Shown piece after piece: positions 3,001 to 34,199 of a DNA stretch of 40,647 nt (position 1 is the stretch's first letter; every line of letters begins with the position of its first letter). The notes under the pieces were generated by a model. That model was not told the origin of the DNA, searched no databases, and worked only from the letters and a program-made list of their open reading frames with translations. Source of the DNA: a virus; UHGV virus genome UHGV-0183130; one strand, 5' to 3'. Position numbers and translations under genes: made by a program.

Positions 3001-3114
3001 CGCAACGAGGATTTTGGCCTTCGCTACAGATTGCAGATCATCAGGCTGTTCGGTAGGGGTTCGTGAACTGGAACTGCCGCCCTTGCGGCCTTTAATCGGG
3101 ATTGCTGTAGCCAT
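1..3114 (-). CDS. J: Tail tip / host specificity protein J (central tail fibre), partial: C-terminal part lies beyond window start
   Basis: Hand translation of minus strand from ATG at 3114 gives an open frame to position 1 (about 1038 codons, no stop), beginning MATAIPIKGRKGGSSSSRTPTEQ and containing blocks resembling lambda gpJ (e.g. YPNTALLYIEFDSSQFNG, TCNVYVQDR). Not in ORF track because it has no in-window stop. Follows I as in lambda. Confidence 0.85.
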   Translation of the reverse strand, partial: MATAIPIKGRKGGSSSSRTPTEQPDDLQSVAKAKILVALGEGEFAGQLTGKNIYLDGTALENSDGTKNFSGVTWEFRAGTQAQNYIQGIPGTENEINVGTEVSSATAWTRTFTNTQLSAVRLRLKWPSLFKQEDNGDLVGYSINYAIDLQTDGGTWQTVLNTSVTGKTTSGYERSHRIDLPQAGSTWTIRLRKINADANSAKIGDTMTLQSFTEVIDAKLRYPNTALLYIEFDSSQFNGSIPQISCEPRGRVIRVPDNYDPDTRTYSGTWQGAFKWAWTDNPAWIFYDLVITDRFGLGNRLSAANIDKWTLYQVSQYCDQPVPDGKGGSGTEPRYTCNVYVQDRNDAYTVLRDFAAIFRGMTYWGGDQIVALADMPRDVDYAYTRANVIDGRFTYSSSTTKTRYTTALVSWSDPGNAYADAMEPVFEQPLVARYGFNQLEMTAIGCTRQSEANRKGRWGILTNNKDRVVSFDVGLDGNIPQPGYIIAVSDELLSGKVMGGRISAVNGRVIKLDRVVDAAAGDRLIINLPSGASQSRTIQAINGESVTVTTAYSETPQAEAVWVVESDELYAQQYRVVSVSDNDDGTFSITGAWHDPDKYARIDTGAIIDQRPVSVIPPGNQSPPANIVISSFSVVQQNISVETMRVSWDQAQNAIAYEAQWRRNDGNWVNVPRSSTTSFDVSGIYAGRYLVRVRAINAAEISSGWGYSEEKTLTGKVGNPPKPVGFATTPINWGIRLNWGFPANTGDTLKTEIQYTANSDFSNPLLLSDVPYPSAEYTQLGLKAGQEFWYRAQLVDRTGNESGWTDWVRGVSNANADDYLGDIADDFLTSADGDRLTGDIDTNLEAAWQNALANHATVEHQWAQYGEVRADILVVKTTIAQVDKAMAEMSTQVKAQFNNVTAALEDKLTAVVDATGASAIYTLKTGVRINGVMYNAGMSIAVLAEAGKPVVTRVGFNANQFVLMSGSGDTQYSPFAVVNGQVFISDAFIQNGSITNAKIGDFIQSNNFVAGSTGWRIDKNGNAELHGKFYADSGQFAF

Positions 3115-3168
3115 ATTGCGCCCATAAAAAAAGCCACCATAAGGTAGCCTGAAAGGAAGATTATTTTG

Positions 3169-3759
3169 TTATTGCTGGTCTTCGACGTATATACCAGCAG
3201 AGATGATCGCCCCGCCAATACGCCTGCGTCCGTATAGAAGCGGAACTGGATTACCCTGAGCAGCAGTGTTAGTTACACCACCGAATGCATACGAAGCCCG
3301 ATTTTCGGCATCCTGTTTGCTGGCAAGTCCTGCTGGCTGTGGCGAAAGCATTTGGATTACGCCTCCAGCCATTAATGCAACACCGGGTGCGACCAATGCC
3401 ATACTTGCACCGCCAGTAAAACCTGACAAAGCGTAGCCAGCTACAACAAGGACGGCACCTAATATGGTTTGTAACAGGCCAGCTTTTTTACTACCAATAA
3501 CTACTGGCACGATCCGGATCACTTCACCTGTCGCCGGAAAGCCTAAATCATCTTCCCCAATATTTTTCTTTCCTCGAAAAACTGCATATGTCAGACCGCG
3601 CTGTTTACTTGAATTCATGAAGGCCTCAAACCCTTTCACTGTTGCAGCTAGCGCTCGACAGGCTTCTCGGGTTGAGCTAATTAAACGATGATGCGTCTTA
3701 CCAAAGGTTTTGCCAAGAATCCCGCTCAGTTCAATTTGGGTCATAACTTCTTGCTGCAT
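3169..3759 (-). CDS. I: Tail assembly protein I
   Basis: C-terminal region (LLQTILGAVLVVAGYALSGFTGG...NPVPLLYGRRRIGGAIISAGIYVEDQQ) matches lambda gpI pattern. Start moved to ATG at 3759 (MQQEVMTQ) preceded by GGAGAAGAG SD. Confidence 0.8.
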   Translation of the reverse strand: MQQEVMTQIELSGILGKTFGKTHHRLISSTREACRALAATVKGFEAFMNSSKQRGLTYAVFRGKKNIGEDDLGFPATGEVIRIVPVVIGSKKAGLLQTILGAVLVVAGYALSGFTGGASMALVAPGVALMAGGVIQMLSPQPAGLASKQDAENRASYAFGGVTNTAAQGNPVPLLYGRRRIGGAIISAGIYVEDQQ

Positions 3760-3770
3760 ACTCTTCTCCA

Positions 3771-3796
3771 ATAAAAAAGCCACCCGGAGGTGGCCA
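3771..3796 (-). terminator. Rho-independent terminator after the lipoprotein gene
   Basis: On minus strand: GCCACC-UCCG-GGUGGC hairpin followed by UUUUUUAU; sits between lipoprotein stop (3815) and I start. Confidence 0.55.
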
Positions 3797-3814
3797 TTTA
3801 TAAAATGACTCGAA

Positions 3815-4240
3815 CTATATGGTTGATGCTCTGATATCAAGTCCGGAATTAGTATCTCCGGTGATGCGGAATTTTTGATGTTCACGAGCATTGATCTGCG
3901 TGGCAGTCTCTTTGAGTGGTTGTCCGACCTGCATTCCACATAATCCTTTACCTTTTGAATCGCCAGATATTCCTAGAATATGTCGGCCGGATGTAACATT
4001 GATATCGATCGTTTCTCCCGTATCAATTCTTGCATAGGATTTTCCATCAATAGTTACTTCTACAAAGCATCCACCACCAGCAAACCATCCTTGATCTCGT
4101 GTAATTGTTATCACCGAGTCACCAGCCCCCTTCAGCAATACACGTTCAGATGGTACTTGTTTTGCAACGGTAGAATTCACCGCCGTGGTTGAACACCCAG
4201 CAACGCTAAGCGCAATTAGAAGCAGCAAAGTCTTTTTCAT
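3815..4240 (-). CDS. Predicted lipoprotein (accessory/moron gene)
   Basis: Start at ATG 4240 gives MKKTLLLLIALSVAGCSTTAV: signal peptide with lipobox VAGC; SD-like GGTGA upstream; own terminator downstream. Confidence 0.6.
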   Translation of the reverse strand: MKKTLLLLIALSVAGCSTTAVNSTVAKQVPSERVLLKGAGDSVITITRDQGWFAGGGCFVEVTIDGKSYARIDTGETIDINVTSGRHILGISGDSKGKGLCGMQVGQPLKETATQINAREHQKFRITGDTNSGLDIRASTI

Positions 4241-4350
4241 ATCCCTATCACCTTTGATTAATTTGCCAAAAGAGTAGCAGGGATCCGGTAACGACAAAAC
4301 CCGCAGTTAAGCGGGTTGGGATAGCAAAAACATTTTAACTGCTTTGAAAT

Positions 4351-5094
4351 TTATGCCACATCAGCACCATGAATCAGATGGCGCAACGCATCAATTCCGT
4401 TAGTGTTGTACCGGAACGCTTCAACCTGTTTACTTGAGTAGGCCGACTTGTCCAGAAAGAACTTGCCATGCGCTTCTGTCTTCAGCTTGTGTGTGTTAGC
4501 AACGCGTCCAATTTTCTGAGCAGAAACCCCCAGCATCTCCCCCACCTCACTCGCAGTGTGGTAATGCTCCTCGATAACAGGTAACGGGATGGCGTCATAA
4601 CCAATAAGCGGATTAATCAACGATGCCGTGAGCACCTGATGTGCCATCGGATCCAATCTAGGAAGCAGAGTAATGATTTCCCGCGCGCTCGCGATATTCT
4701 TCTCCAATGCCTGGGCTTTCAACTGTTCTGCCTTAGCCAATCGGTACTCAGTGATACCTGTGTTGCTTTTTGGCATCGCTGGTAATACCTGCATATCTTC
4801 CAGCTTATCAACCAGAGAACGTCGAACGGCTTTCGATTCACGAGCGGCTACTCGGAGGGCTTGCTTGATAGACATTGTAATTACTTCAATGTCTTGACCA
4901 TTTTTACGACCTACACTTTTTGTGTAGGTCTCCCCTTCAAGCTCATCAACAACCTTCTCAATGAACTTGTTATTTCGGACAGCCGGCTCACCGCATTGCT
5001 TTCGCGCAGCATTCACCATCTCCAGCAAGTACTGGCTATCAATGGTTTTCTCGGTGACATTAGCGCTATTTACTGCTAAATTTAATGAAGTCAT
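4351..5094 (-). CDS. Phage antirepressor-like protein (ANT/KilA-C type C-terminal domain)
   Basis: 247 aa ORF; C-terminal segment HYHTASEVGEMLGVSAQKIGRVANTHKLKTEAHGKF resembles the conserved C-terminal domain of phage antirepressors; adjacent to Arc/Mnt-like regulators. Confidence 0.5.
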   Translation of the reverse strand: MTSLNLAVNSANVTEKTIDSQYLLEMVNAARKQCGEPAVRNNKFIEKVVDELEGETYTKSVGRKNGQDIEVITMSIKQALRVAARESKAVRRSLVDKLEDMQVLPAMPKSNTGITEYRLAKAEQLKAQALEKNIASAREIITLLPRLDPMAHQVLTASLINPLIGYDAIPLPVIEEHYHTASEVGEMLGVSAQKIGRVANTHKLKTEAHGKFFLDKSAYSSKQVEAFRYNTNGIDALRHLIHGADVA

Positions 5095-5171
5095 TGGTTG
5101 GACCCTTATGACAGATTTATGGATAGCCGATAGCCCTAACTATCGGCTTTTCTATTTGCAGCATTGCAAAT

Positions 5172-5840
5172 TCAGTAGATTCTTGGCCTTTCTCCTTCCT
5201 GAAGCTGTAGTTCAGCATGAGTCTTAATCATGTACATAAACGCGGCCCCATCATTGAAACGATCGTGAAGACGGCCTGCGAGCGGAGACTCAATCGCCCT
5301 CAACGCTGGCTCTATCTGGTTAAACCATGCTTCACACATAATCTCGAAATAATCGAACATTGCGTTTGCATTGTGGGCGTGGACTTCTCGATCGCTGAGC
5401 ATCTTCGGTACTGGAAAGTTAATAGATACCTCACGGTCCAGAATGTCTAACACCCAGTGTCGGAATTCTTTAGCAACCGGAGTTCTGGCAAACATAGCGA
5501 CCATGTGTGCGCCACGTAGAGAAAAAACCCTAGTTTCCTGATGCCCACCAGGGGTGGTCAACTTGACCACCCTTGTCATTTTTTCTGTAAACTCATCAAT
5601 ATGACGAGCAAAAATTCGCTGAACAGCTTTATCGTCTGCATATTGAAGCGCGTAACCAATCTGATTAGCGGTCAGCCAGATGCCATCGATATCAGGAGCC
5701 GGCTGCAGAGAAATGCCATGGAAGTTCAGCTCTTCTTTCGTTACACTGTTCATGTCGATATTTCCTGCCAAGGATTTCTTCGATAAGAAACCCAGGGTGT
5801 TCGCGCACTCCTGGGTTTCACTGTTTTTATGCTTGTTCAC
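5172..5840 (-). CDS. Phage antirepressor-like protein (AntA/Bro-N-like N-terminal region)
   Basis: 222 aa ORF (track start is GTG at 5840 with GGGGGGAAG SD; alternative ATG at 5753). Segment ELNFHGISLQPAPDIDGIWLTANQIGYALQY resembles antirepressor N-domains. Directly downstream of the Arc-like gene, as ant follows arc in P22 immI. Confidence 0.5.
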   Translation of the reverse strand: MNKHKNSETQECANTLGFLSKKSLAGNIDMNSVTKEELNFHGISLQPAPDIDGIWLTANQIGYALQYADDKAVQRIFARHIDEFTEKMTRVVKLTTPGGHQETRVFSLRGAHMVAMFARTPVAKEFRHWVLDILDREVSINFPVPKMLSDREVHAHNANAMFDYFEIMCEAWFNQIEPALRAIESPLAGRLHDRFNDGAAFMYMIKTHAELQLQEGERPRIY

Positions 5841-5994
5841 TCTTCCCCCCTTCTAATCCGTACGCTTTCCTCAACTGATAGATGAGCTCAGTATTGAACT
5901 GACGGCACTCATCTTCCCCATTTCTCTCTATCGCCAACCGGACATCTTCAGGAAATCGAACCTTACGCTGGTACATATCTTTAGCTTTTTCCAT
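5827..5994 (-). CDS. Arc-like ribbon-helix-helix repressor
   Basis: Start at ATG 5994 (SD GGAGGGG) gives 55 aa MEKAKDMYQRKVRFPEDVRLAIERNGE..., size and pattern like P22 Arc. The longer track ORF would read through the operator palindromes. Confidence 0.6.
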   Translation of the reverse strand: MEKAKDMYQRKVRFPEDVRLAIERNGEDECRQFNTELIYQLRKAYGLEGGKSEQA

Positions 5995-6007
5995 AACCCC
6001 TCCAATT

Positions 6008-6075
6008 ATGCCCCACGGTGGGACACATAAAGTGTCACACCGTGCGTCATTGATGTCAACCCCACCGTGGGGCAT
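6008..6075. promoter_or_regulatory. Operator region between divergent Arc-like and Mnt-like genes
   Basis: Perfect 15-bp inverted repeat ATGCCCCACGGTGGG (6008-6022) / CCCACCGTGGGGCAT (6061-6075), each holding an 11-bp palindrome (CCCACGGTGGG, CCCACCGTGGG), flanking a central near-palindrome GACACATAAAGTGTC. Confidence 0.5.
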
Positions 6076-6113
6076 AATTTACATAATGTGAACTTTTTGA
6101 GTGAGGCAACCAA

Positions 6114-6557
6114 ATGAGCAGAGAAGATCCTCAACTAAGAATAAGATTACCAATTGAATTAAAAGAAAAAATTGAAGATGCAGCAAAATCCAATAACCGC
6201 TCTATGAATGCTGAAATAGTTCAACGTCTCGACAACAGCTTCCTTAGCGAATTACGTGAAGATGAAGTAATTTCTGCTCAAGATGCAATTCAACTTGTTG
6301 AAAAAGCGAGGGATGAACTCTCTGAAATAATATTCAAAAGGACTTTTTCAGAGATCAACAAAAAGGTACGGATTGGTCATTCCACATTCCATATTCATCT
6401 CAGCGATCTTGAGTTGGACGGACTTAGTGACGATGATTTCAACACTGTTTTCAAAAAAACTTTTAGTCGCCTAAAAGAGTTAGGTTACGAAGTCTGGGAA
6501 AAGACTTGGGATGCGGATGGTTTTGGGGTGGAAATTCCAGGGGAACAGTCCACCTAA
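6114..6557 (+). CDS. Mnt-like ribbon-helix-helix repressor with C-terminal extension
   Basis: N-terminus MSREDPQLRIRLPIELKEKIEDAAKSNNRSMNAEIVQRLDNSF parallels P22 Mnt; 147 aa, AT-rich; divergent from the Arc-like gene. Confidence 0.6.
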   Translation: MSREDPQLRIRLPIELKEKIEDAAKSNNRSMNAEIVQRLDNSFLSELREDEVISAQDAIQLVEKARDELSEIIFKRTFSEINKKVRIGHSTFHIHLSDLELDGLSDDDFNTVFKKTFSRLKELGYEVWEKTWDADGFGVEIPGEQST

Positions 6558-6563
6558 ATGGGC

Positions 6564-7274
6564 TTAAGCTAGAGTCTTATAGCGAAGTACCTTCATTGTT
6601 CTTTCTTGCCAGTAGCCGCCGTATGGCACACGTTGGCTGAGGTGCCCATACAGGTGATGCAACAGCATGTTACCTTCCAGTAGAATTCCCGCGTGATTCC
6701 ACTTATTGGCCTGGACCTGCATGATAACCATATCACCTGGCTGCGGTACGCCACTGAATTCACGGAATCCGCATTCATACCAGCAATCGTGGTAGAAGTT
6801 TTCGGGATAACTGTCTTCCCACCAGGGATAATCCACGCGGTAATCCGTCAGCTCAATGCCATGCGTTTGCCGGAAATAGCTCATCACCAGCCCCCAGCAA
6901 TCGAAATGACCGAGCACAAATGGGCGCTCAAGTAGCGGCAACTCGCCCCGCGGCTGAATGGTACGCAGATCCCCCTCCGGCCAGCTGAGGATATGCCACG
7001 GAAGTAACGTAGCGTCACACTGTGCCTTATCCAGTTCGCTCGGCTGTGTCGTTGCGTCCGGGTGACTGTGGACAATGGCAATCACTGTTCCCCAGTCTTC
7101 GGCAGCGGCATAATCTTCCGGCGACAGGTGGAAATGCTCTGTCGGATCGGTTGCCAGATTACGGCAAGGAATGTACCGCTGCACCCTGCTTTTTTGCACC
7201 ACTACGCCGCAGCATTCGCGGGGATATTCAGAAGCGGCATGCGCCATAATGGCGTCGATAATTTTCTGACGCAT
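6564..7274 (-). CDS. K: Tail assembly protein K
   Basis: 236 aa; lambda position between L and I; strong resemblance to gpK including the HSHP motif region (AIVHSHPDATTQPSELD). Confidence 0.85.
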   Translation of the reverse strand: MRQKIIDAIMAHAASEYPRECCGVVVQKSRVQRYIPCRNLATDPTEHFHLSPEDYAAAEDWGTVIAIVHSHPDATTQPSELDKAQCDATLLPWHILSWPEGDLRTIQPRGELPLLERPFVLGHFDCWGLVMSYFRQTHGIELTDYRVDYPWWEDSYPENFYHDCWYECGFREFSGVPQPGDMVIMQVQANKWNHAGILLEGNMLLHHLYGHLSQRVPYGGYWQERTMKVLRYKTLA

Positions 7275-8378: not shown

Positions 8379-10895
8379 TTACCTCTGTTTTGTTGCATTC
8401 CAGATAATGCCTCCGGGTCGGACCTCTCTGGTGATACCTTCCCTGATGGAACTGTTGATCACCTGCTGATAGGCTTTCCCCAGCGCATCGCCGTTTCCTT
8501 TCTGCTGACCGGAATCCCCCTGGCCTGTTGTAACCGAAACCGGTGCATACACGCTGACACCAAAAGGAGAAGCAACGCCAGCGCCACTCCCCCCGACCAG
8601 GCCACCAGTCGCATAACCACGCATCATGCGATAAAGGTTGCCGACACCGATTCGGTTGGTGGCTTCCTGCGTAAAGACAAACTCTCCACGGTGCACCACA
8701 CCTGCAGGCTCATACTTACCGCCGGTCCCGGTAAAACCACCGCCAGCAAAACCCAGCGCAGAAGTGGCAGAACTGACCAGGCCAGCCATGGCCTGCTTCA
8801 TCAGGATCTGCGTCAGCATCGACAACGTGGAACGGGTGAAATCTGCCCAGTTTGCTTTCCCAGTCGTCAGCATATCGGCCATATTCTGGCTGATACCATC
8901 GAATGTGGCTGAAGCAGCGGACTTCATCGAACCATAGGCATCAGCTGCTGAATCGGCATAGTCAGCCCACGCTGATTTCGCCCCGGCCTGCCAGTTGCCA
9001 CGTAGCTCGTCCTGCGCGGCATAATATTTCTTCAGTGCATCCAGTTCGTTCTGATAACCCTGATCGGTGTCCGTACCGCCGGCATTCATCCAGCCCTGCC
9101 GCAGCTGTGCCTCTTCGTTTTGCCGCTGCGCGCCGCGACTGCTCATGCTGCCCCCGGCCACAAGCGCTCGTGTTTTCTCCCCAATCTGGGTAACGTACTT
9201 CTGCGAGCTGTCCTGCAGGCGGTTTAACCGTTCCTGGGCAACAATCTGATCGCCCAACCGGGCATTCACTTCGGCCCGCGCCAGTACCTCGTCTTTGTTC
9301 GCCAGCACCGATTTTTCATCGGCGGTCAGCGCGCGCTTTTTGGCGGCCTCTTCCAGCACCGAAAAGCGGGATTGCTGTTTCCACAATTCCAGCCGCTGCT
9401 GGCTGATGGTATCCGTGATGCTCTTATGCTCCTGCAGAGTGCGTAACTGCGCCTCCAGCTCCAGCGTCTGTGCGCTGGCAGTATCGACACTTTTTACACC
9501 TGCAGGTGTTTTTACCGCTGAAGGGGCTTTGGGTTTCTTCAGCGAGTCGTCGTATTCTTTTTTCGCAGCTTCCAGATTGATGTTGTAGTCAGCCTGGAGG
9601 ATCCGTCCGTCTTTCAGCGCCTTGTTCAGTTCATTCTGACGGGCCGTGTACTTCTCCAGCGCAGTCTGCGTCTTTGCATAATTCGACTGCGCCTGCGCGG
9701 CATACTTCTGGCGGTCAGATTCAATCACTGCCTCGCGGGCGGCGTTATCCTCAGTGGCCTTTGCCACACTGGCCTGCTGCTGAGCCATTTCCAGTGCAAG
9801 GCGGGCAGACTCCCGATCGTTCCAGTAGCTGGCGCGCGCATCATCATTGACATAAGAATCACCTTTACGCAGATTCCAGATTTCATCCGCCCGCTTAAAG
9901 GCCGCTTCCGCTTTGGCAACCATCTCCTGCGTGGTGTCAGGCCGCCCAATATCGAGCGCCGCATCCCACATCGATTTAAAGGCACGCTTCAGGCTGTCGG
10001 CAGCAGTCTCAATCGACCCCATATTGTCGCGCAGGCTCTTTGTCTGTTCGCGAAAACCGTTCGTCGCCGCATCATTAGCTGCCTGTAGAGCCCCGGCCTC
10101 ATCCCCGGCACGCTGCAGTTGCGCCACATAAGCAATCTGTTCCGCGGTAACGTTGTGGAACTGTTGCGCCATAGCAATAAGGCCTGAAGTCGGATCATTC
10201 GTCAGTTTGCCAAATGCCGCTGCCACCTTGTCGACCGGCACGCCCGACGCATCGGTGAACTTCGCTACCGCCTGACTCATCTCATCGAACCGGGCACCGG
10301 CACGCACTCCGGCGTTGACCAGCTCCGTCAGCGCGCTGCTGGTCTGGTTAAACGTGAGTCCCGCCTGCTCGCCGGATTTCGCCAGCACCAGCATGCGGTT
10401 TGAGGTCAGCCCGGCAGTGTTACCGGACAGGACCAGCGTTTTGTTGAAATCAGACAGCGTGGACGAGCCCTGATACCAGGCGTAAACCACCGCTCCAGTG
10501 GCGGCAGCCAGCGCGCCAACACCTACCATCACCGGCGATATGGTGCCCAGCAACGCCCGAAAGGTCGGAATAATACCGCCGAAGGAGTCTTTCACCTGAC
10601 CGCCCTGCTGCAGCAGGATAAGCCACGGACTCTGCCCACCGGCCAGCTGGGTGGCAATATCCGTAAACTGCGCAGGCAGCATACGCATCGCCGCGTTGTA
10701 CTGTCCTACAGAAATGCCGGCCTTCTTCGCGGCGCTCTCCTGGCGGGTAAATGACTGCTGCACCTTCAGCGCCGAGTCATTCGCTGCGTCACCCGTCTGC
10801 TTAAACTGCCTTTTTACGTACTCCATCTGCTCGTTGAACTTTGACGAATTAACGTCAAGGTTAACGACCAGGTCACCCACTGCCGTCTGGGCCAT
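8379..10895 (-). CDS. H: Tail length tape measure protein H
   Basis: About 838 aa; start moved to ATG 10895 (MAQTAVGDLVV, SD AGGAGG), paralleling lambda gpH MAEPVGDLVV; many conserved blocks (AGISVGQY..AAMRMLPAQFTD..QSPWLILLQQGGQVKDSFGG). Confidence 0.9.
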   Translation of the reverse strand: MAQTAVGDLVVNLDVNSSKFNEQMEYVKRQFKQTGDAANDSALKVQQSFTRQESAAKKAGISVGQYNAAMRMLPAQFTDIATQLAGGQSPWLILLQQGGQVKDSFGGIIPTFRALLGTISPVMVGVGALAAATGAVVYAWYQGSSTLSDFNKTLVLSGNTAGLTSNRMLVLAKSGEQAGLTFNQTSSALTELVNAGVRAGARFDEMSQAVAKFTDASGVPVDKVAAAFGKLTNDPTSGLIAMAQQFHNVTAEQIAYVAQLQRAGDEAGALQAANDAATNGFREQTKSLRDNMGSIETAADSLKRAFKSMWDAALDIGRPDTTQEMVAKAEAAFKRADEIWNLRKGDSYVNDDARASYWNDRESARLALEMAQQQASVAKATEDNAAREAVIESDRQKYAAQAQSNYAKTQTALEKYTARQNELNKALKDGRILQADYNINLEAAKKEYDDSLKKPKAPSAVKTPAGVKSVDTASAQTLELEAQLRTLQEHKSITDTISQQRLELWKQQSRFSVLEEAAKKRALTADEKSVLANKDEVLARAEVNARLGDQIVAQERLNRLQDSSQKYVTQIGEKTRALVAGGSMSSRGAQRQNEEAQLRQGWMNAGGTDTDQGYQNELDALKKYYAAQDELRGNWQAGAKSAWADYADSAADAYGSMKSAASATFDGISQNMADMLTTGKANWADFTRSTLSMLTQILMKQAMAGLVSSATSALGFAGGGFTGTGGKYEPAGVVHRGEFVFTQEATNRIGVGNLYRMMRGYATGGLVGGSGAGVASPFGVSVYAPVSVTTGQGDSGQQKGNGDALGKAYQQVINSSIREGITREVRPGGIIWNATKQR

Positions 10896-11238
10896 AGCGA
10901 ACACCTCCTGAAATGCCCTCGGCCTTTGCCATCAGCACAGCGTCACCAGGTTCATCATCGGCAATATCCTCCGCAGAAGGTGAAAGCAGGCTGAAGCTGG
11001 CAGGGGTTGATGTGGTTTTGGGGTCAAGCGCGGTAATGACGATATGCATCAGCGAGGAAAAATGTGCATCCAGTTGCGCATCATTAAAAAAATTGTCCTG
11101 GTAGAACGTTCGCCAGTCGGCGTATTCCGTTGACGACATACCAGCAAGCATGGCGCGCCAGTCCGGGCGGCGAAATTCACGCGCCAGTTTCAGGACGAAT
11201 GTCAGCTCGCTGGCGAGGACTTTTCCAGACTGACCGGC
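10873..11238 (-). CDS. T: T segment of tail assembly chaperone GT, reached from G by programmed -1 frameshift
   Basis: The -1 frame relative to G is open from 11238 to the stop at 10873 and overlaps the last 12 codons of G; candidate slip site GGAAAAG at 11220-11226. G/GT frameshifting is conserved in lambda-like tails. Confidence 0.7.
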   Translation of the reverse strand, partial: AGQSGKVLASELTFVLKLAREFRRPDWRAMLAGMSSTEYADWRTFYQDNFFNDAQLDAHFSSLMHIVITALDPKTTSTPASFSLLSPSAEDIADDEPGDAVLMAKAEGISGGVRYGPDGSG

Positions 11239-21159: not shown

Positions 21160-21400
21160 CACTCCATGCACAAAAACAGAGAAAGGAAACGCCCTCTGGC
21201 TATTTAGCCGTTTTTAAGGCTTATCATTTCCTTTCTTTTCAGGGGGTGTTTACAGTTAAAACAATGAATTAGCGAGAAGAAGAACGGAAACGGCAAATGC
21301 CTGAAAATTTTCATAAATAGCGAGAATCTGCGCGGTCGCCGCCCCGTAACGGAGCGGATCGCTGGAAAGGACCCGCAAACGATAATAAATATCAATTTCA
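21160..21400. other. cos site (cosB - cosN - cosQ), lambda type
   Basis: Reverse complement of 21300-21344 reads GGGCGGCGACCGCGCAGATTCTCGCTATTTATGAAAATTTTCAG, close to the lambda left end; 12-nt cohesive-end equivalent at 21333-21344; cosB-like sequence toward Nu1 and cosQ-like GCGGGTCCTTTCC...GTTACG on the other side. Confidence 0.8.
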
Positions 21401-21496
21401 CAATTCGATTTATAAGCTATCCCTATAATGATTCTCTTAGCGTATGCACAATTAAATGGGCACATCACATTTAGTGCCCTTAGGTTTTCTTCTAGA

Positions 21497-22000
21497 TTAC
21501 TTTGCTTTAAGAACGCTTTTTGATTCTTTAACTAAATCTTCCAGAAGTTTATTTGTCAACGATAAGAGATGTTCTTCAGCATCATCTGTATCTAACCCCT
21601 GAAAATTAACTTCATAGTCAACCTTATCTTCTCGTTTCAAATAATCAGTTAGAAGTTTTGATACTGATTCAGTAACCAGCAAGGGGCCGATATTGCTATA
21701 TTTTACTATTAAATCTTTTGCCTCAGCAGCTGAGATTTGTAATTTACTAAGTTTCTCAGCACTCAATTTGATAAAGTTTGGATATTCATCTGGACCTAAT
21801 CGTTGATACTCTTTCAAATCAGAATAATAATCTTGTAGAACCTTTACCTGATAAATTGCATTAGTTAATTCAATAAGGGCCCCTGCTCTCTTCTCCCACC
21901 ACTTTTCACTATAAAAACGTTTTAAAGCAAATAACATTGCAATCCATGCACCAAGTCCACCCGCTACTACAGAGATCACTAATTGGTAAATATAATTCAT
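21497..22000 (-). CDS. Hypothetical membrane-anchored protein, AT-rich cargo gene
   Basis: 167 aa, N-terminal hydrophobic helix IYQLVISVVAGGLGAWIAMLFAL then a charged helical region; SD GAGG before ATG; local GC roughly 35-38 percent versus about 52 percent in phage core. Confidence 0.5.
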   Translation of the reverse strand: MNYIYQLVISVVAGGLGAWIAMLFALKRFYSEKWWEKRAGALIELTNAIYQVKVLQDYYSDLKEYQRLGPDEYPNFIKLSAEKLSKLQISAAEAKDLIVKYSNIGPLLVTESVSKLLTDYLKREDKVDYEVNFQGLDTDDAEEHLLSLTNKLLEDLVKESKSVLKAK

Positions 22001-22420
22001 GATAGCCTCGCATATTTATACTGTGACTATTCTGCATGATTTTGACTAATCAGTACATATCAACCATTCTTTCCGGATGACCGCGCTAATGATATCGAGA
22101 CAATCCCTACAGATTAGTCTGCTCCCTATGGAATTTTTCTCTTCCACATTTCCTTCAGTACAGGGGGAGTTATTGTGCATTATCTCAGGCGCTCAGTGAA
22201 TGCCTCTGTAATGGCAGCCTGTGTAACAAACAACCTACCGTTCAATGGCTGAGCGACCTGCTATCACGATGGCAGTCATCATGGAAAAACCCCATATTTT
22301 CTATAATTAATAAGAAAATCATGACATAAGTCATTGAAATACTGATTGCTCATTGTAACTTGGATTTATCTCCCCACTTCCCTATTGCGCTATTGTTGGC
22401 GTAATTAGGAGAAGCTATAA

Positions 22421-22846
22421 ATGACTGGTAAAACAATTAATCTGCAATTTGATGGGTATTGGCGTGAAGCCAATAAGAGTGGCGTTCCAGATCAGTCAGG
22501 AATCTACTGCGTATACGCATGCAAAGCTGTTACTAATGGCTCCAAGACAACACTCGAAATTCGTAAGTTGATTTATATCGGCGAATCATCGAACGTCCGA
22601 TCCCGTGTGGCCACGCACGACAGGCTGGGTGACTGGAATGAACATTTAATGGTCGGTGAGACTCTCTGCTATTCCGTCGCTACTATTACTGGAAAAGATG
22701 ATCGGGTGCGCGCAGAAGCTGCATTGATTAACAAAATGACTCCCCCTGCAAATAGCGAGTATACGGGTGAATTCCCTTACAACGAAACCACTGTTAACTG
22801 CTCTGGGGAAACTTCGCATTTGCTTTCCACATTAACCGTTGGTTAA
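22421..22846 (+). CDS. Putative GIY-YIG-like nuclease domain protein
   Basis: 141 aa; SGIYCVY ... KLIYIGESSNVRSRVATH ... RVRAEAALINKMTPPAN fits GIY / YIG / Arg / Glu / Asn motif order, though the GIY-YIG spacing is longer than canonical. Opposite strand to flanking late genes. Confidence 0.45.
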   Translation: MTGKTINLQFDGYWREANKSGVPDQSGIYCVYACKAVTNGSKTTLEIRKLIYIGESSNVRSRVATHDRLGDWNEHLMVGETLCYSVATITGKDDRVRAEAALINKMTPPANSEYTGEFPYNETTVNCSGETSHLLSTLTVG

Positions 22847-22880
22847 CTCTTTAAAATGGCTGGCTAAGTCTAGCGGCCAT

Positions 22881-23042
22881 TCACTTCAAACATTGCTGCC
22901 TGATGTAATCCTGTAAGTAACTCACTTGCCCGGTGATGGTGCTGATTCGCTCTCTGAGGGTGAAATAATCCCGTTTAGCGGCGTCAGTAAGTCGGGGGCT
23001 ATTGCCATCATCCTTACCGATGATATTGTCTGTTTCACTCAC
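22881..23042 (-). pseudogene. Remnant of an Rz (i-spanin) 3' end
   Basis: In-frame minus translation [43 protein letters not shown] matches the Rz C-terminus; about 54 bp at 22945-22998 is a near-repeat of 24061-24114 inside the intact Rz; no N-terminal part. Confidence 0.55.
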
Positions 23043-23165
23043 TCAGTAGTTAGTATGGTTCTGCATTGTCCCTTCACTAATGTCGTGCTGCGATGTAATT
23101 TCACGGAGGGCCATCACTCCGGCACAGTACGCCGCCCCGATGACCTCCCAGTCCGGCTTGCTCAT
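23043..23165 (-). CDS. Small ORF (40 aa) with HTH-like sequence resembling terminase small-subunit N-termini; possibly a gene remnant
   Basis: MSKPDWEVIGAAYCAGVMALREITSQHDISEGTMQNHTNY; AGGA-type SD upstream; ends with stop directly followed in frame by the Rz remnant. Confidence 0.3.
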   Translation of the reverse strand: MSKPDWEVIGAAYCAGVMALREITSQHDISEGTMQNHTNY

Positions 23166-23251
23166 GCTTCTTTCCTATTAAAGTAATCCCATTGATGACC
23201 TATGGTAAGACGGAAGTAAACCTGTCATCTATGCTACCGAGGAGATTCTCG

Positions 23252-23440
23252 ATGGACGAAACAATTACTGAAAATGCTATTAAGCAAGCATATAGCGTTA
23301 CCATCATGCAGCTTTTTAATGTCTATCTAAATTCAGCAAACGATCCCAACGCATCAGCAAGATTTCAGGAAGGGCTTCGTCTTGCGATACAAGTCCGAGA
23401 TGCCTGCTTGCAAATCGCCTCCCAAAACCATGCGCCATGA
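23252..23440 (+). CDS. Hypothetical small protein (AT-rich cargo)
   Basis: ATG with GAGGAG SD; 62 aa; first of three tandem same-strand small ORFs; 4-nt overlap with next ORF. Confidence 0.3.
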   Translation: MDETITENAIKQAYSVTIMQLFNVYLNSANDPNASARFQEGLRLAIQVRDACLQIASQNHAP

Positions 23441-23685
23441 ATTCATTAGCGGCCTATTCAAAAACTACCATTACGATGGGTCTGCCCATGGTTATGGCAA
23501 CGCAGAAAGGTAATAGAATAAGAGTTAATCCCCTGACCTTACCAAACCAGCGGCCCACCCTAATTAGCTCGATTACTTTGAATACAACTTTTGTGTTTAG
23601 GCAACCTCAAAAATCATACAAACATATCACCCACGCTGATAAAAAAACAATCCAAAATAAAATCTCATTTACATCACTGGAGTAA
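23437..23685 (+). CDS. Hypothetical small protein (AT-rich cargo)
   Basis: 82 aa ORF overlapping the previous stop (ATGA); no recognisable family. Confidence 0.25.
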   Translation: MNSLAAYSKTTITMGLPMVMATQKGNRIRVNPLTLPNQRPTLISSITLNTTFVFRQPQKSYKHITHADKKTIQNKISFTSLE

Positions 23686-23690
23686 CAACC

Positions 23691-23936
23691 ATGCCTAACT
23701 GTGAACTTTTAACCGAAACCGGCGTTGATAACTTTGCCATTGTTATCAAATTTCTATCAGAAAACAACCTTATAGATGAAGCAGTTAATTATTTAAAAAA
23801 CAATGGCCATACAAATATTAGAGTCAGCATCGAAGCTGTTGAAGACATACAGAAATTCTTATCCGAAAAATATCCATCATCCTCATCAAGCAAAGCTGAT
23901 GCCATAATTAATTGCAGTCATAGCCATTGCAGTTAA
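23691..23936 (+). CDS. Hypothetical small protein (AT-rich cargo)
   Basis: 81 aa ORF with GGAG SD; acidic, Ser-rich C-terminus; no recognisable family. Confidence 0.3.
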   Translation: MPNCELLTETGVDNFAIVIKFLSENNLIDEAVNYLKNNGHTNIRVSIEAVEDIQKFLSEKYPSSSSSKADAIINCSHSHCS

Positions 23937-23996
23937 TTACTAACGCTATGCCAACTAATATTGAATAACTAATCAGACAGCGAAATAGGTGACAAG

Positions 23997-25915: not shown

Positions 25916-26605
25916 TCACATTTCTGCCACTTTGAGGGCTTCTTCTTCCTCATAGTATTCAAGAGCCATTGCCAACGCAGATTCATCAAGCTGGGTAAAA
26001 GCGGCCTTTAACCCAGCCCAGTGCCATGAATAGACACGCAACCATGTCGAACGGTCAACGCTAACCATGCGGGCCAACGCTGCACCAGCATAGTCTTTAT
26101 AGGTTTCATTATTTCTGTTTGCGGCAATTTCCTGCCCTGCCAGCCATACCAGACCTATCAGTTTCTTTACTACACGCTCCTGAAGCGAGTTTTCACCCAG
26201 GCATTTCTGATAAGTTTTCCAGACGTATTCACACATCATCACCTGGTGCTTATAGCTAAGGTCAAAACCGTAGCAGTACCGCAACCAGGCCTGCTGGTAT
26301 CCACTAAGCGCGGACACTGCCCTACGCCACGGCGCGGACTCAAATTCCGCATCTTTTATCGGCGGCATTGGCCTGCGGCGGCTGCGTGTTTCCAGCACAT
26401 ACAGTGGCGCGGAAAGCGAGTTAACAAAGCGTGGCCCCTTCTCTCCTTCGAGTTCGACGAGATGAATTCCACGGCGCGGGGTGGCATTTTTGTCTGCTGG
26501 TGGGTGTTCACTGAAAGCCTCAAGCTGCCCTTTTGTTCCCCCAGAGAGGTCAGGTAGCGCGCGGCGCAATTCTATTCTTACAAAATTCAGGTCTTGTTGA
26601 TTCAT
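25916..26605 (-). CDS. Putative late-gene antiterminator (Q-like, QuuQ-type), assigned mainly by position
   Basis: About 229 aa from ATG 26605; sits between the DUF968-like gene and the lysis cassette, matching the ydfU - quuQ - holin order recalled from E. coli Qin prophage; not similar to lambda Q itself. Confidence 0.45.
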   Translation of the reverse strand: MNQQDLNFVRIELRRALPDLSGGTKGQLEAFSEHPPADKNATPRRGIHLVELEGEKGPRFVNSLSAPLYVLETRSRRRPMPPIKDAEFESAPWRRAVSALSGYQQAWLRYCYGFDLSYKHQVMMCEYVWKTYQKCLGENSLQERVVKKLIGLVWLAGQEIAANRNNETYKDYAGAALARMVSVDRSTWLRVYSWHWAGLKAAFTQLDESALAMALEYYEEEEALKVAEM

Positions 26606-26626
26606 GCTTCTTTGCGCTCCATACAC

Positions 26627-27622
26627 TTAAGCTTTCGCAATTACGCCGATCGCCAGCGCCCGATCCATAAAACGCAGTAGCAGCTCAAGCTGCGTACCAT
26701 GCTTCTGCTCGAATGCTGGTACATCGGCGTGTAACTCGTCGTGGCACTCTCTGCACAGAGGGATCACGAAGAGGTCATGGGCTTTTGTTGCTGTACCACC
26801 CATACCGTGCCCTACGATATGGTGCGGATCATCTGCTGGCCGTCGGCAACACTCACAGGGTTGTGTTTTAACCCAGCGGGTGTACGTCTCATTTATCCAG
26901 CGGCGTCGCTTTGGCCTGAGCATGAAAGATTCTGGAGACTCCGGATCAACAGAGAGCGTGAGGATCTTCTTCGCCTTCTCCTGCACGAGGCTGGTTGCAG
27001 ACGCTGAAGGCACAATGTCGCTTTCCCTCATGACAGAGCGGATGTTCTCATCCGGGAGGCGCAGCCCTTTGTGCGCAACGCTTTCCGGAATAACATCAGC
27101 CAGGTCGTTTCTGACCATCCACCAGCACAGTTCCGGAAGCGTCAGGATATGCGACTCGGGAAAACCAGAATCACGCCGAATGACTTCCAGAATCCAGGAT
27201 ACCAGGTTTCCTGCCGCTATACCTGCAAGCTGTTCGGTATGCTGCCCCGACAAAGTGTGATCGCAATGCCAGCACAGGCGAATGCTTCCTGGTGGGTGCC
27301 GCATTGTTGTGAAGTTCTTGTCGTGCCACGATGAATGTGGCCACTGGCATTCAAACCGAGAACTCAGCCACTGCTCAAGGGAAGGAAGCCCACCGGCACG
27401 CTGAATAACCCGCTCATTCCCGAAGACCTGCCGCATTACCGGATCATCAGCCAGCGGCTGAATGGCTGCCGGAACAGCCCCGGTACTGAATGACGCCATT
27501 TCTTCTGGTTCAGGTTCGAGCAGAACGCGACCACGCATGAAGAGGTGCATCAGTTCCGCGCCGGGACGAAACAACACAATCCCCATACGATGGGCTACTT
27601 CAGGAGTTAACAAAGCCCTCAC
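26627..27622 (-). CDS. DUF968-family phage protein (YdfU-like) with C-terminal Cys/His cluster
   Basis: 331 aa; C-terminus CECCRRPADDPHHIVGHGMGGTATKAHDLFVIPLCRECHDELH looks like an HNH/zinc-finger type motif; GTG start overlapping Rha stop (GTGA). Confidence 0.5.
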   Translation of the reverse strand: MRALLTPEVAHRMGIVLFRPGAELMHLFMRGRVLLEPEPEEMASFSTGAVPAAIQPLADDPVMRQVFGNERVIQRAGGLPSLEQWLSSRFECQWPHSSWHDKNFTTMRHPPGSIRLCWHCDHTLSGQHTEQLAGIAAGNLVSWILEVIRRDSGFPESHILTLPELCWWMVRNDLADVIPESVAHKGLRLPDENIRSVMRESDIVPSASATSLVQEKAKKILTLSVDPESPESFMLRPKRRRWINETYTRWVKTQPCECCRRPADDPHHIVGHGMGGTATKAHDLFVIPLCRECHDELHADVPAFEQKHGTQLELLLRFMDRALAIGVIAKA

Positions 27623-28305
27623 GCCGCCTGCCCCCCTGCAATATGTTCAGCCCACAAACCACCAATCCAGCGTACTCCCTTGGCAGTGAAACGCGTCTGG
27701 CTAAATGCGTGATTGGATGTGTTCGATGTTCCCGTCTTAACTTCAAATCTTCCTGCGGAAATGTGCTGCGCCATAGGGGTAAGTGTGCCGCCGAGGCGAT
27801 ACAGGATATTGCGTTCAATAAGGAACAGGCGGAACTCAGTTTCTTTTGCGTTGAGCAATTTGGCTACCTGCCGGAATGACATGGAGCCTTTTGCAGAGCA
27901 ATAACGATCAACAAACTCCACTTTTGGCGCCGCAGCTGCCAGCTGGATGGTCAGTTGCTCTTTCTGCTCGGCTAAATCAGCAGCCAGGCGAAGCGCTTCC
28001 GGCAATGAGCGGGGAACACTGACACTCTGCCCTTCTTCCAGTTCCTGCCACCGATCAACAACCGCAGCGGTAAATTCTGGTGACAGTCTGGCAACAATCA
28101 CCAGAGAGTCGCGTTTGTTAAAACGATACTCCTGGTAAACATTGCCGTTATGCTCAAAATCGAACTGCGCCAACGGCGCGGTTAAAATTCCCGCAGCAAC
28201 AAGACGCTCAGCCGAGCGTTTCACGTCACTGTGTTTACTCTGAACCAGATCCGCAATATCACGGCTGGACATTGTTACTACACCATTCACGATTAACTGG
28301 CTCAT
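27619..28305 (-). CDS. Rha-family phage regulatory protein / antirepressor
   Basis: Start at ATG 28305 (SD GGAG); N-terminus LIVNGVVTMSSRDIADLVQSKHSDVKRSAERL fits Rha N-domains; C-terminal half resembles antirepressor C-domains. Confidence 0.6.
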   Translation of the reverse strand: MSQLIVNGVVTMSSRDIADLVQSKHSDVKRSAERLVAAGILTAPLAQFDFEHNGNVYQEYRFNKRDSLVIVARLSPEFTAAVVDRWQELEEGQSVSVPRSLPEALRLAADLAEQKEQLTIQLAAAAPKVEFVDRYCSAKGSMSFRQVAKLLNAKETEFRLFLIERNILYRLGGTLTPMAQHISAGRFEVKTGTSNTSNHAFSQTRFTAKGVRWIGGLWAEHIAGGQAA

Positions 28306-28318
28306 ACTTTTCTCCATA

Positions 28319-28705
28319 TCAGGCGGCTGCACCCGCCGGTTCATATCTGCTGATCGTTATCTCTACCCGACCTTTCGGCACTACGGGTCCCCATTCCACC
28401 AGCATGCGCTTAATCTGGCTGTCGTCTTCCCAGACACCCGCATGCGTCAGCGCGTCAAACAGGGCTTTGTTGTAATTATCGATATCCCGGCGGCGCGCAT
28501 CCGGCGGGTACAGAGTGATTTCTACCGCTGCCAGTTCAGTCGATGGCTTCGGGAGACGTCGTAATTGCTCAATGATCGCCACGCAGGCAGCGCTCTGGTA
28601 TTTACGGCCATCAGCGCTAATGAGGTGACGACCGGCCAGCGGCCCCTTGTTAGGGGCGCGCCAGTAGGTGTTCACGCTCGGAGGGAACGGGAGCACAAGT
28701 TTCAT
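28319..28705 (-). CDS. rusA: Holliday junction resolvase RusA
   Basis: Start at ATG 28705 (SD AGGAGG): MKLVLPFPPSVNTYWR ... DARRRDIDNYNKALFDALTHAGVWEDDSQI parallels E. coli RusA. Confidence 0.75.
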   Translation of the reverse strand: MKLVLPFPPSVNTYWRAPNKGPLAGRHLISADGRKYQSAACVAIIEQLRRLPKPSTELAAVEITLYPPDARRRDIDNYNKALFDALTHAGVWEDDSQIKRMLVEWGPVVPKGRVEITISRYEPAGAAA

Positions 28706-33539: not shown

Positions 33540-34199
33540 ATGAAAACAGAGATGAAAGACCGCATCAGATCCAGACGAATCCAGCTGGATATAACCCAAT
33601 TAGCACTGGCTAAAAAGCTTGGTGTAAGCCGTGTATCGGTTACAAAATGGGAAAACGGCACGACAAAGCCTGATGGTGAGAACCTTCACCAGTTGGCTCA
33701 GGCTCTATCAACAACACCAGAGTGGATACTCTATGGAAGCGGTGATGAGGCCATTGACGACACGCGCGTCGTGCCTTTTTTGAAACCCCCTGTAGCTGTA
33801 CCGATCATATCGGCAGTTCAAGCCGGTTTATGGACGGATAGCTATGCCTGCTCAAGACTTACAGACGTGATTTCCTGGACTCAAACAACTGCAAATGTAT
33901 CGGATGAAGCGTTTGGGTTAGTAGTCCGCGGTGAGTCGATGACTAACCCGCAAGGACTTCCATCTATACCAGAAGGTTCTATTGTTATAGTCGAGCCCCA
34001 TTATGGGCAGCTTGATGATCTATATGGGAAAATAGTCGTTGCTATATTGGATGGGACATCAGAAGCAACGGTTAAAAAATTAGTTTGGGATAGCCCCTAC
34101 TCATACCTAATGCCACTGAATCCGTTATTTAAGCCAATCCAAATTGATGGTAACTGTCGCATTGTCGGAAAAGTTGTACAAATCACTCAAAACATTTAA
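33540..34199 (+). CDS. cI: CI-like repressor (HTH_XRE N-domain plus LexA/S24 autopeptidase C-domain)
   Basis: 219 aa; N-terminal HTH (ITQLALAKKLGVSRVSVTKWENG), C-terminal S24 features (VRGESM serine region, KK pair); divergent from cro. Confidence 0.85.
   Translation: MKTEMKDRIRSRRIQLDITQLALAKKLGVSRVSVTKWENGTTKPDGENLHQLAQALSTTPEWILYGSGDEAIDDTRVVPFLKPPVAVPIISAVQAGLWTDSYACSRLTDVISWTQTTANVSDEAFGLVVRGESMTNPQGLPSIPEGSIVIVEPHYGQLDDLYGKIVVAILDGTSEATVKKLVWDSPYSYLMPLNPLFKPIQIDGNCRIVGKVVQITQNI

Follow-up and report, generated by a model that had tools for sequence, protein, structure and literature searches.

The stretch analysed here, 40,647 nt of a lambdoid prophage (UHGV virus genome UHGV-0183130; referred to below as the window), contains a lipoprotein gene that has an intrinsic terminator of its own and directly precedes tail gene I. 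This arrangement was the core of the original prediction and is confirmed, positions 3771-4240 covering exactly the gene and the terminator. The locus is one instance of a catalogued lipoprotein family in a recognised cargo slot, and its reading as a moron is largely right. The function favoured here, at a probability of roughly 0.45, is that of an autonomously transcribed outer-membrane lipoprotein protecting the lysogen or the progeny from lambda-like siphophages after receptor binding.

Genomic setting of the lipoprotein gene

All late genes of the window lie on the minus strand, and the host of this lambda/HK97-like prophage is probably a Citrobacter. Tail tip protein I (196 aa, 3169..3759, minus strand) is recognised by PHROG 32 (E 8e-76), with a match to Pfam Lambda_tail_I (E 1e-4) that falls slightly under the gathering score. 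Gene J, on the same strand, starts at an ATG at 3114 and runs off the end of the window. Tail assembly protein K, identified in the Pfam search by JAB and NlpC/P60 domains, is encoded at 6564..7274 (minus strand), and the tape-measure gene lies at 8379-10904 (minus strand); the late genes also include M, L, holin, endolysin, Rz and the large terminase. The window further encodes a Q-like antiterminator (25916-26626, minus strand) and a CI-like repressor (33540-34199, plus strand), and the lipoprotein gene is part of the late operon that depends on Q.

Between K and the lipoprotein gene, Pfam and PHROG searches delineate a P22 immI-like module with genes on both strands (4351..6557). It comprises a divergent Arc/Mnt-like gene on the plus strand (6114-6557) and three minus-strand genes: one Arc-like (5827-6075), one of the Bro-N/Ant type (5172-5840) and one for a second anti-repressor-like, Ant-like protein (4351-5094). 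A terminator-like hairpin found in the terminator scan (4298..4317, minus strand) closes the Ant operon. Just upstream of the Q-like gene, the minus strand at 26627-28344 encodes an HNH endonuclease-like protein (PHROG 96) and an Ant-like anti-repressor (PHROG 63), and because of this further Ant-like gene the prophage encodes three Ant-type proteins. From the lysis genes to the terminase (21200-23990), the ORFs have no PHROG assignment or one to an unknown group, and this interval is probably another cargo region; an opposite-strand ORF of 141 aa within it (22421-22846, plus strand; YCVY...IYIGES...R) resembles a small GIY-YIG-type domain.

A second terminator-like hairpin, AGGCTACC-TTAT-GGTGGCTT followed by a T-run, is located between I and J (3124..3150, minus strand). 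Gene I is consequently bracketed by two similar terminators, and HK75 also has an annotated terminator at its I-J junction. In five related loci (L014, L020, L021, L024 and L031), I and J are separated by extra DNA of about 0.3-1.2 kb, pointing to a second cargo slot at this junction.

A widespread family of predicted outer-membrane lipoproteins

The lipoprotein gene, called as an ORF at 3815..4240 on the minus strand (ATG at 4240-4238, stop TAG at 3817-3815), encodes 141 aa. At the N-terminus of the product, MKKTLLLLIALSVAGC, a basic n-region is followed by a hydrophobic core and then by the lipobox V-A-G-C. The signal peptide consists of residues 1-15, MKKTLLLLIALSVAG|C16, with VAGC at residues 13-16, and the lipobox fits the pattern [LVI][ASTVI][GAS]C of signal peptidase II substrates. 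The signal peptide and lipobox anticipated in the original prediction are thus present, and all 62 diverse family members compared have the cysteine. The codon of Cys16 occupies 4195-4193, and the +2 residue is Ser, not Asp. Under the enterobacterial +2 rule, Ser at this position predicts Lol-dependent sorting to the outer membrane. The product is thus predicted to undergo export and lipidation at Cys16 and, with Ser at +2, to reach the outer membrane, on its periplasmic side.

The protein matches PHROG 890 ("lipoprotein") over nearly its entire length (E 6.2e-43; residues 1-140 aligned to positions 1-135 of the 136 in the profile). Forty close homologs were found, and a protein 99% identical to it is recorded from Citrobacter freundii. 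In a profile search of 1.84 billion representatives (E up to 0.001), the PHROG 890-type family amounts to 1327 clusters at 50% identity, and nearly all of the best 150 of these 1327 clusters are about 140 aa in size. On the strength of the profile match, the close homologs and the size of the family, the gene is real and no chance ORF. The family is widespread and already catalogued, and its function is at the level of prediction; a literature search found no experiment on any member.

Apart from Cys16, two further cysteines, Cys58 and Cys101, are conserved in at least 90% of the 62 diverse members, which fits a periplasmic disulfide. The AF2 model of the protein (pLDDT 83) is predicted as a generic transthyretin-like beta-sandwich. 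No match was obtained in Pfam (E up to 0.01), NCBIfam or the PADLOC anti-phage models. Weak matches to DUF2846 (Pfam) occur in 12 of 62 distant relatives, the best at E 1.9e-5, and none in the window lipoprotein itself. Bd1399, the one structure tied to the DUF2846 name in the literature, was reassigned by its authors to DUF4360, and kinship with DUF2846 is accordingly regarded as weak. Profile searches of PDB sequences with the lipoprotein matched signal peptides alone. For T5 Llp (PDB 8a60), chain 8a60_B matches the signal peptide only (E 0.58) and is absent from the top fold matches. No homology to Cor, T5 Llp or lambda Bor was detected in the Pfam, PHROG, PDB sequence and fold searches.

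A conserved terminator separates the lipoprotein gene from gene I

The terminator scan identified an intrinsic terminator at 3773..3795 (minus strand), with the stem GGCCACC / GGTGGC(T), the loop TCCG and a run of six T. The hairpin itself, at 3795-3778, begins 19 nt past the lipoprotein stop codon, and 14 nt separate the end of the terminator from the ATG of gene I (3759). In 40 of 41 related loci (39 fetched loci and the window), the spacer between the two genes contains a GC-rich hairpin; L027 is the sole locus without it, and the hairpin of L002 has an interrupted T-run. At least 8 different stem sequences occur among these loci. An alignment of 24 distinct sequences, built around the hairpin, has 97.5% of its cells paired, and four of the seven pairs are changed on both sides; one pair, for instance, occurs as G-C 12 times, as A-U 9 times and as U-A twice. 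The covariation score obtained from this hairpin-centred alignment was reached by none of 500 shuffles. Since the same spacer is occupied in 40 of the 41 loci and the stem covaries across 24 sequences, the hairpin is no chance structure, and its stem is kept through compensatory changes.

A putative promoter and a weak leader hairpin precede the gene

Upstream of the lipoprotein gene, 39 nt from its ATG, lies the extended -10-like motif TGCTACTCT (4271..4279, minus strand), a putative promoter of its own. In the window, the hexamer of this motif is weak and there is no clear -35. Of about 16 independent upstream contexts, 9 have a TGnTAnnnT sequence beginning 29-39 nt before the lipoprotein ATG; the background expectation is 0.05% at each position, or about 1.3% over 26 nt. 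In the K-adjacent loci, the motif reads TGCTAACCT and overlaps the K stop codon, and HK75 carries TGATACTAT at an equal distance before its alternative cargo gene. A generic sigma-70 scan of the region remained at chance level. A promoter-like match at 4359-4332 was rejected as a promoter of the lipoprotein gene, being located upstream of the Ant-operon terminator.

From the recurrence of this motif, a promoter of the extended -10 type is a plausible candidate for the gene. Together, the conserved terminator and the recurrent motif point to an autonomous transcription unit. A conserved terminator would otherwise be useless in a Q-antiterminated operon, which argues for unantiterminated transcription starting upstream of it.

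The 5' leader also contains a weak hairpin, CTTTTGG / TCAAAGG (4251..4272, minus strand), with arms at 4272-4266 and 4257-4251. Its 3' arm holds the Shine-Dalgarno sequence AAGGTGA, and its 5' arm, a pyrimidine stretch, overlaps the -10-like motif. Such a hairpin is present in many of the related loci. In K-adjacent relatives, where it abuts the K stop codon, the inner pairs are changed on both sides (CCTTTCG/CGAAAGG, CCTTTGT/ACAAAGG and CCTTC/GAAGG); the comparison is based on folding each leader by itself, since MAFFT did not bring the two arms into register. The energy is modest (-6.5 kcal/mol, z -0.3 in the window), and the comparison of relatives lends moderate support to a hairpin that occludes the Shine-Dalgarno sequence. 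If real, it would be confined to late, read-through transcripts and be missing from those started at the gene's own promoter, so that translation could be controlled differently in the two.

The lipoprotein gene is fixed next to gene I and variable in its distance from K

Homologous loci were collected from 33 viral contigs, from phages mEp390, 5400 and phiAH14a and from genomic or metagenomic loci, and K, L, M, I and the Ant module were mapped onto them with tblastn. The set of 41 related loci (39 fetched loci and the window; L001-L035, L037, L039, L041, L042 and L052) spans Enterobacteriaceae and Pseudomonas. In all 41, a homolog of the lipoprotein (31-100% identity) is located 34-65 nt upstream of I. 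The distance from K to the lipoprotein gene is 36 nt in most loci and ranges from 36 nt to 3.1 kb; the other values are 0.3, 0.5, 0.8, 1.0, 1.4, 1.7, 2.3 and 3.1 kb, and 2.3 kb is found in the window and in L003-L006. The Ant module is present in L003, L004 and L006, is partial and carries a variant second Ant in L005, and is missing from most relatives, in which K abuts the lipoprotein gene. The variable insertion point, as judged from these comparisons, is the interval between K and the lipoprotein gene. It is therefore the 2.2-kb Mnt/Arc/Ant/Ant module that was inserted here, and relative to the nearest relatives the lipoprotein gene is the resident element.

A wider comparison gives the complementary picture. 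HK75, HK446, mEpX1 and others align with the window over K and I (about 80% nucleotide identity in matched stretches) and lack the lipoprotein gene. In these HK97-like phages, the K-I slot holds an unrelated 74-aa membrane protein of the HK022 gp20 type ("YebO family"), followed by a terminator. Relative to HK75, HK446, mEpX1 and lambda, sequence comparison marks the lipoprotein gene as optional cargo and the slot as a moron slot. The proposal of a moron inserted in the late operon therefore stands in part: it agrees with the absence of the gene from the collinear HK75 and HK446, where another gene fills the slot, but does not describe the nearest relatives, among which the lipoprotein gene is resident and the Ant module is the insertion.

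Remote family members (28-30% identity) occupy other sites: in SSU5-like phage-plasmids they neighbour a repressor gene, in a P2-like phage the homolog follows gpD, and a further setting is chromosomal. In Salmonella phage SSU5 (97429-97851), the homolog is 30% identical and adjoins the repressor gene. The homolog of SSU5-like phage-plasmids appears in 419 plasmid records from Escherichia, Enterobacter, Klebsiella, Salmonella and Yersinia, 62 of them from Yersinia, including Y. pestis plasmids. In the LF82/Cyrano transcriptome, a hypothetical gene near the repressor of an SSU5-like phage-plasmid is listed as expressed 723-fold (PMC9928086); mapping did not link it to the lipoprotein homolog, and it is left out of the argument.

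Pseudomonas satellites carry gene I and the lipoprotein gene

Ten satellite-like islands of Pseudomonas (L043-L051 from Pseudomonas genomes, and L056, phage phiAH14b; an example is L051, 3192-4914) contain one or two homologs of I with a lipoprotein gene of PHROG 890 immediately after them, and lack K, L, M and J. Some of the islands encode a P4-like primase or helicase, a DUF2280 terminase-like protein, or both. Variable genes further downstream include an invertase, a DUF2971 protein and an 842-aa protein. Across the islands the lipoprotein is conserved (70-90% identity) and the adjacent I is variable (38-83%). For the satellite phiAH14b and its helper phiAH14a, I and the lipoprotein constitute the only homology (PMC4936722). 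PhiAH14a (NC_074659) has a second copy of I, p32, which is 79% identical to p84 and lies outside the tail operon, in the early/lysogeny arm and on the other strand (PMC4936722).

Divergence of the lipoprotein follows I and is independent of the end of J

Among the phage loci, the divergence of the lipoprotein tracks that of I (rho 0.76; 0.79 for the C-terminal half of I) more than that of K (0.60). In partial Mantel tests, the correlation of the lipoprotein with I given K is 0.60 (p 5e-4), and that with K given I is 0.13 (not significant). The junction between the lipoprotein gene and I is never broken, and linkage alone could therefore explain this co-divergence. In the satellites, no co-divergence of the lipoprotein and I is seen (rho 0.08, p 0.3), and a specific (cognate) recognition pair is accordingly not claimed.

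The receptor-binding end of J behaves differently. The lipoproteins of L021 and L022 are 88% identical and their J C-termini 17%; the corresponding values are 91% and 36% for L014 and L019, and 80% and 26% for L015 and L034. By these sequence comparisons, the type of lipoprotein is independent of the receptor-binding end of J, which argues against receptor masking in the manner of Cor or Llp.

Proposed function and alternatives

In the favoured reading, the cassette in the K-I slot would be ordered as an extended -10-type promoter, a Shine-Dalgarno sequence, the 141-aa lipoprotein gene and an intrinsic terminator. In the lysogen, transcription would proceed from the cassette's own promoter, the terminator keeping the transcript out of I and J; during lytic growth, Q-modified polymerase would read through the terminator. 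A disulfide-stabilised beta-sandwich at the periplasmic face of the outer membrane would act as a binding module, and the step blocked would be the entry of the tail-tip plug I and the C-terminus of the tape-measure protein at the outer membrane/periplasm. Masking of a specific receptor is probably not involved. Lambda gpI is a trimeric tail-tip plug bound to a C-terminal fragment of the tape-measure protein, and it has been proposed that, once LamB is bound, hydrophobic helices of gpI enter the outer membrane (PMC11101478, PMC12617516). A lipoprotein on the periplasmic face would be well placed to hinder this insertion step. There are precedents for phage exclusion by a tail-module lipoprotein, in mEpimmI Lpp (PMC11893012), and for exclusion of siphophages after adsorption by a prophage lipoprotein, in Ltp (PMC3952083).

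A narrower version of post-adsorption exclusion makes the lipoprotein and I a functional pair, in which the lipoprotein would intercept the incoming I, or its complex with the tape-measure C-terminus, the satellites' own I would evade the helper's lipoprotein and their own lipoprotein would exclude rivals. This extension is viewed as unlikely. If true, it would constitute a new exclusion mechanism at outer-membrane penetration and a new reason for a satellite to carry a tail-tip gene.

The proximity of the lipoprotein gene to J, the central fibre gene one gene away, would also suit a blocker of the Cor/Llp type, inactivating the outer-membrane receptor of the phage's own J and so preventing adsorption to lysogens and debris. 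Such a role was proposed by the phiAH14 authors (PMC4936722) and has precedents in Cor of phi80 and N15, Llp of T5 and the Lpp proteins of mEpimmI (PMC11893012), but the pairing of lipoproteins 80-91% identical with J C-termini 17-36% identical makes it an unlikely explanation. Alternatively, the product may be a Bor/TraT-like factor for host fitness or virulence (serum resistance, adhesion or envelope robustness) with no role between phages. An outer-membrane lipoprotein moron in an enterobacterial prophage would fit this description, as would the remote homolog on SSU5-like phage-plasmids, Yersinia pestis plasmid records included, and the mEp390 annotation, which names a Y. pestis CO92 lipoprotein as similar. 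A host factor is nonetheless improbable, given that there is no Pfam Bor match, that the same family and arrangement recur in phages and satellites of environmental and Antarctic Pseudomonas, and that the invariant coupling to tail gene I is left unexplained.

Two further explanations assign the gene to the lytic phase or to the virion. As a late 'lytic conversion' protein translated in coupling with K, the lipoprotein would alter the envelope of the dying cell so that debris does not trap progeny. The gene does lie in the late operon on the same strand, and in most relatives it starts 36 nt past the K stop, with an abutting hairpin that occludes the Shine-Dalgarno sequence and would allow coupling. 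For a purely late gene, however, the conserved terminator and the promoter-like motif would be superfluous, and in the window K is 2.3 kb away, which makes coupling to it impossible, and the hairpin is weak (z -0.3). A purely late role is thus doubtful to a similar degree as a host factor, although expression may be dual, late and from the gene's own promoter. Very improbable, finally, is a component of tail assembly or structure required by I: the gene always adjoins I and is paired with it in satellites, but a Sec/Lsp-exported lipoprotein cannot enter cytoplasmic tail assembly, and lambda, HK75, HK446, mEpX1 and others are functional with similar K and I and without the lipoprotein gene. The papers on the tail-assembly defences Tai and Tab report no involvement of I or of lipoproteins.

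Significance and comparison with known systems

The K-I slot of lambda/HK97-like tails emerges as a framed cassette site made up of a promoter-like motif, a cargo gene and a terminator. In Enterobacteriaceae and Pseudomonas alike, the lipoprotein family goes with gene I and not with the receptor-binding end of J, and I and the lipoprotein are what a group of Pseudomonas satellites has in common with its helpers. If entry is blocked after receptor binding, the lipoprotein would make the passage of lambda-like tails through the outer membrane accessible to genetics, a step that recent cryo-EM is only beginning to describe.

The moron concept is that of Hendrix and colleagues. Lambda Bor, with which the gene had originally been compared, is also a lipoprotein encoded by a lambdoid prophage moron, and its gene too has transcription signals of its own, which in the window are the terminator and the putative promoter. 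It differs in its location near the lysis genes and in its role in serum resistance, and has no sequence relationship to the window lipoprotein (no Pfam match), so that the comparison is reduced to an analogy. Ltp of Streptococcus thermophilus phage TP-J34 is also a prophage lipoprotein and excludes siphophages after adsorption (PMC3952083). Unlike the window lipoprotein, it has a Gram-positive host and a helical-repeat fold, and its gene is located in the lysogeny module and not in the tail operon. Its target, according to work by Bebeacua et al. in 2013, is reportedly the tape-measure protein.

Cor (phi80, N15 and HK022), Llp (T5) and Lpp021/Lpp010 (mEpimmI) are likewise small lipoproteins of the outer membrane whose genes lie within or beside the tail genes, and for which phage exclusion is expected or shown (PMC11893012). 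None showed homology to the window lipoprotein. These proteins match the receptor of their phage, whereas lipoproteins of the window type are independent of the receptor-binding end of J. HK022 gp20 and HK75 gp18 have a common frame with the window. The K stop comes first, then TGnTAnnnT at about 36 nt from the ATG, a small ORF for an envelope-targeted product, a terminator of the AACCACC...GGTGGTT type and I. Their cargo is unrelated: a 74-aa single-pass membrane protein of the RefSeq YebO family, and no lipoprotein.

The closest counterparts are homologs of the PHROG 890 type in Pseudomonas sp. ANT_H14, AH14a_p83 of the helper and AH14b_p21 of the satellite, and gp17 of mEp390, which are 31-37% identical to the window lipoprotein over about 91-100% of its length. 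All three have, like the window, the lipobox, a size of about 140 aa and the adjacency to tail gene I. The arrangements differ in that the satellite order is I and then the lipoprotein gene, while in the window the lipoprotein gene precedes I, and in that the mEp390 lipoprotein gene abuts K, while in the window the Ant module lies between them.
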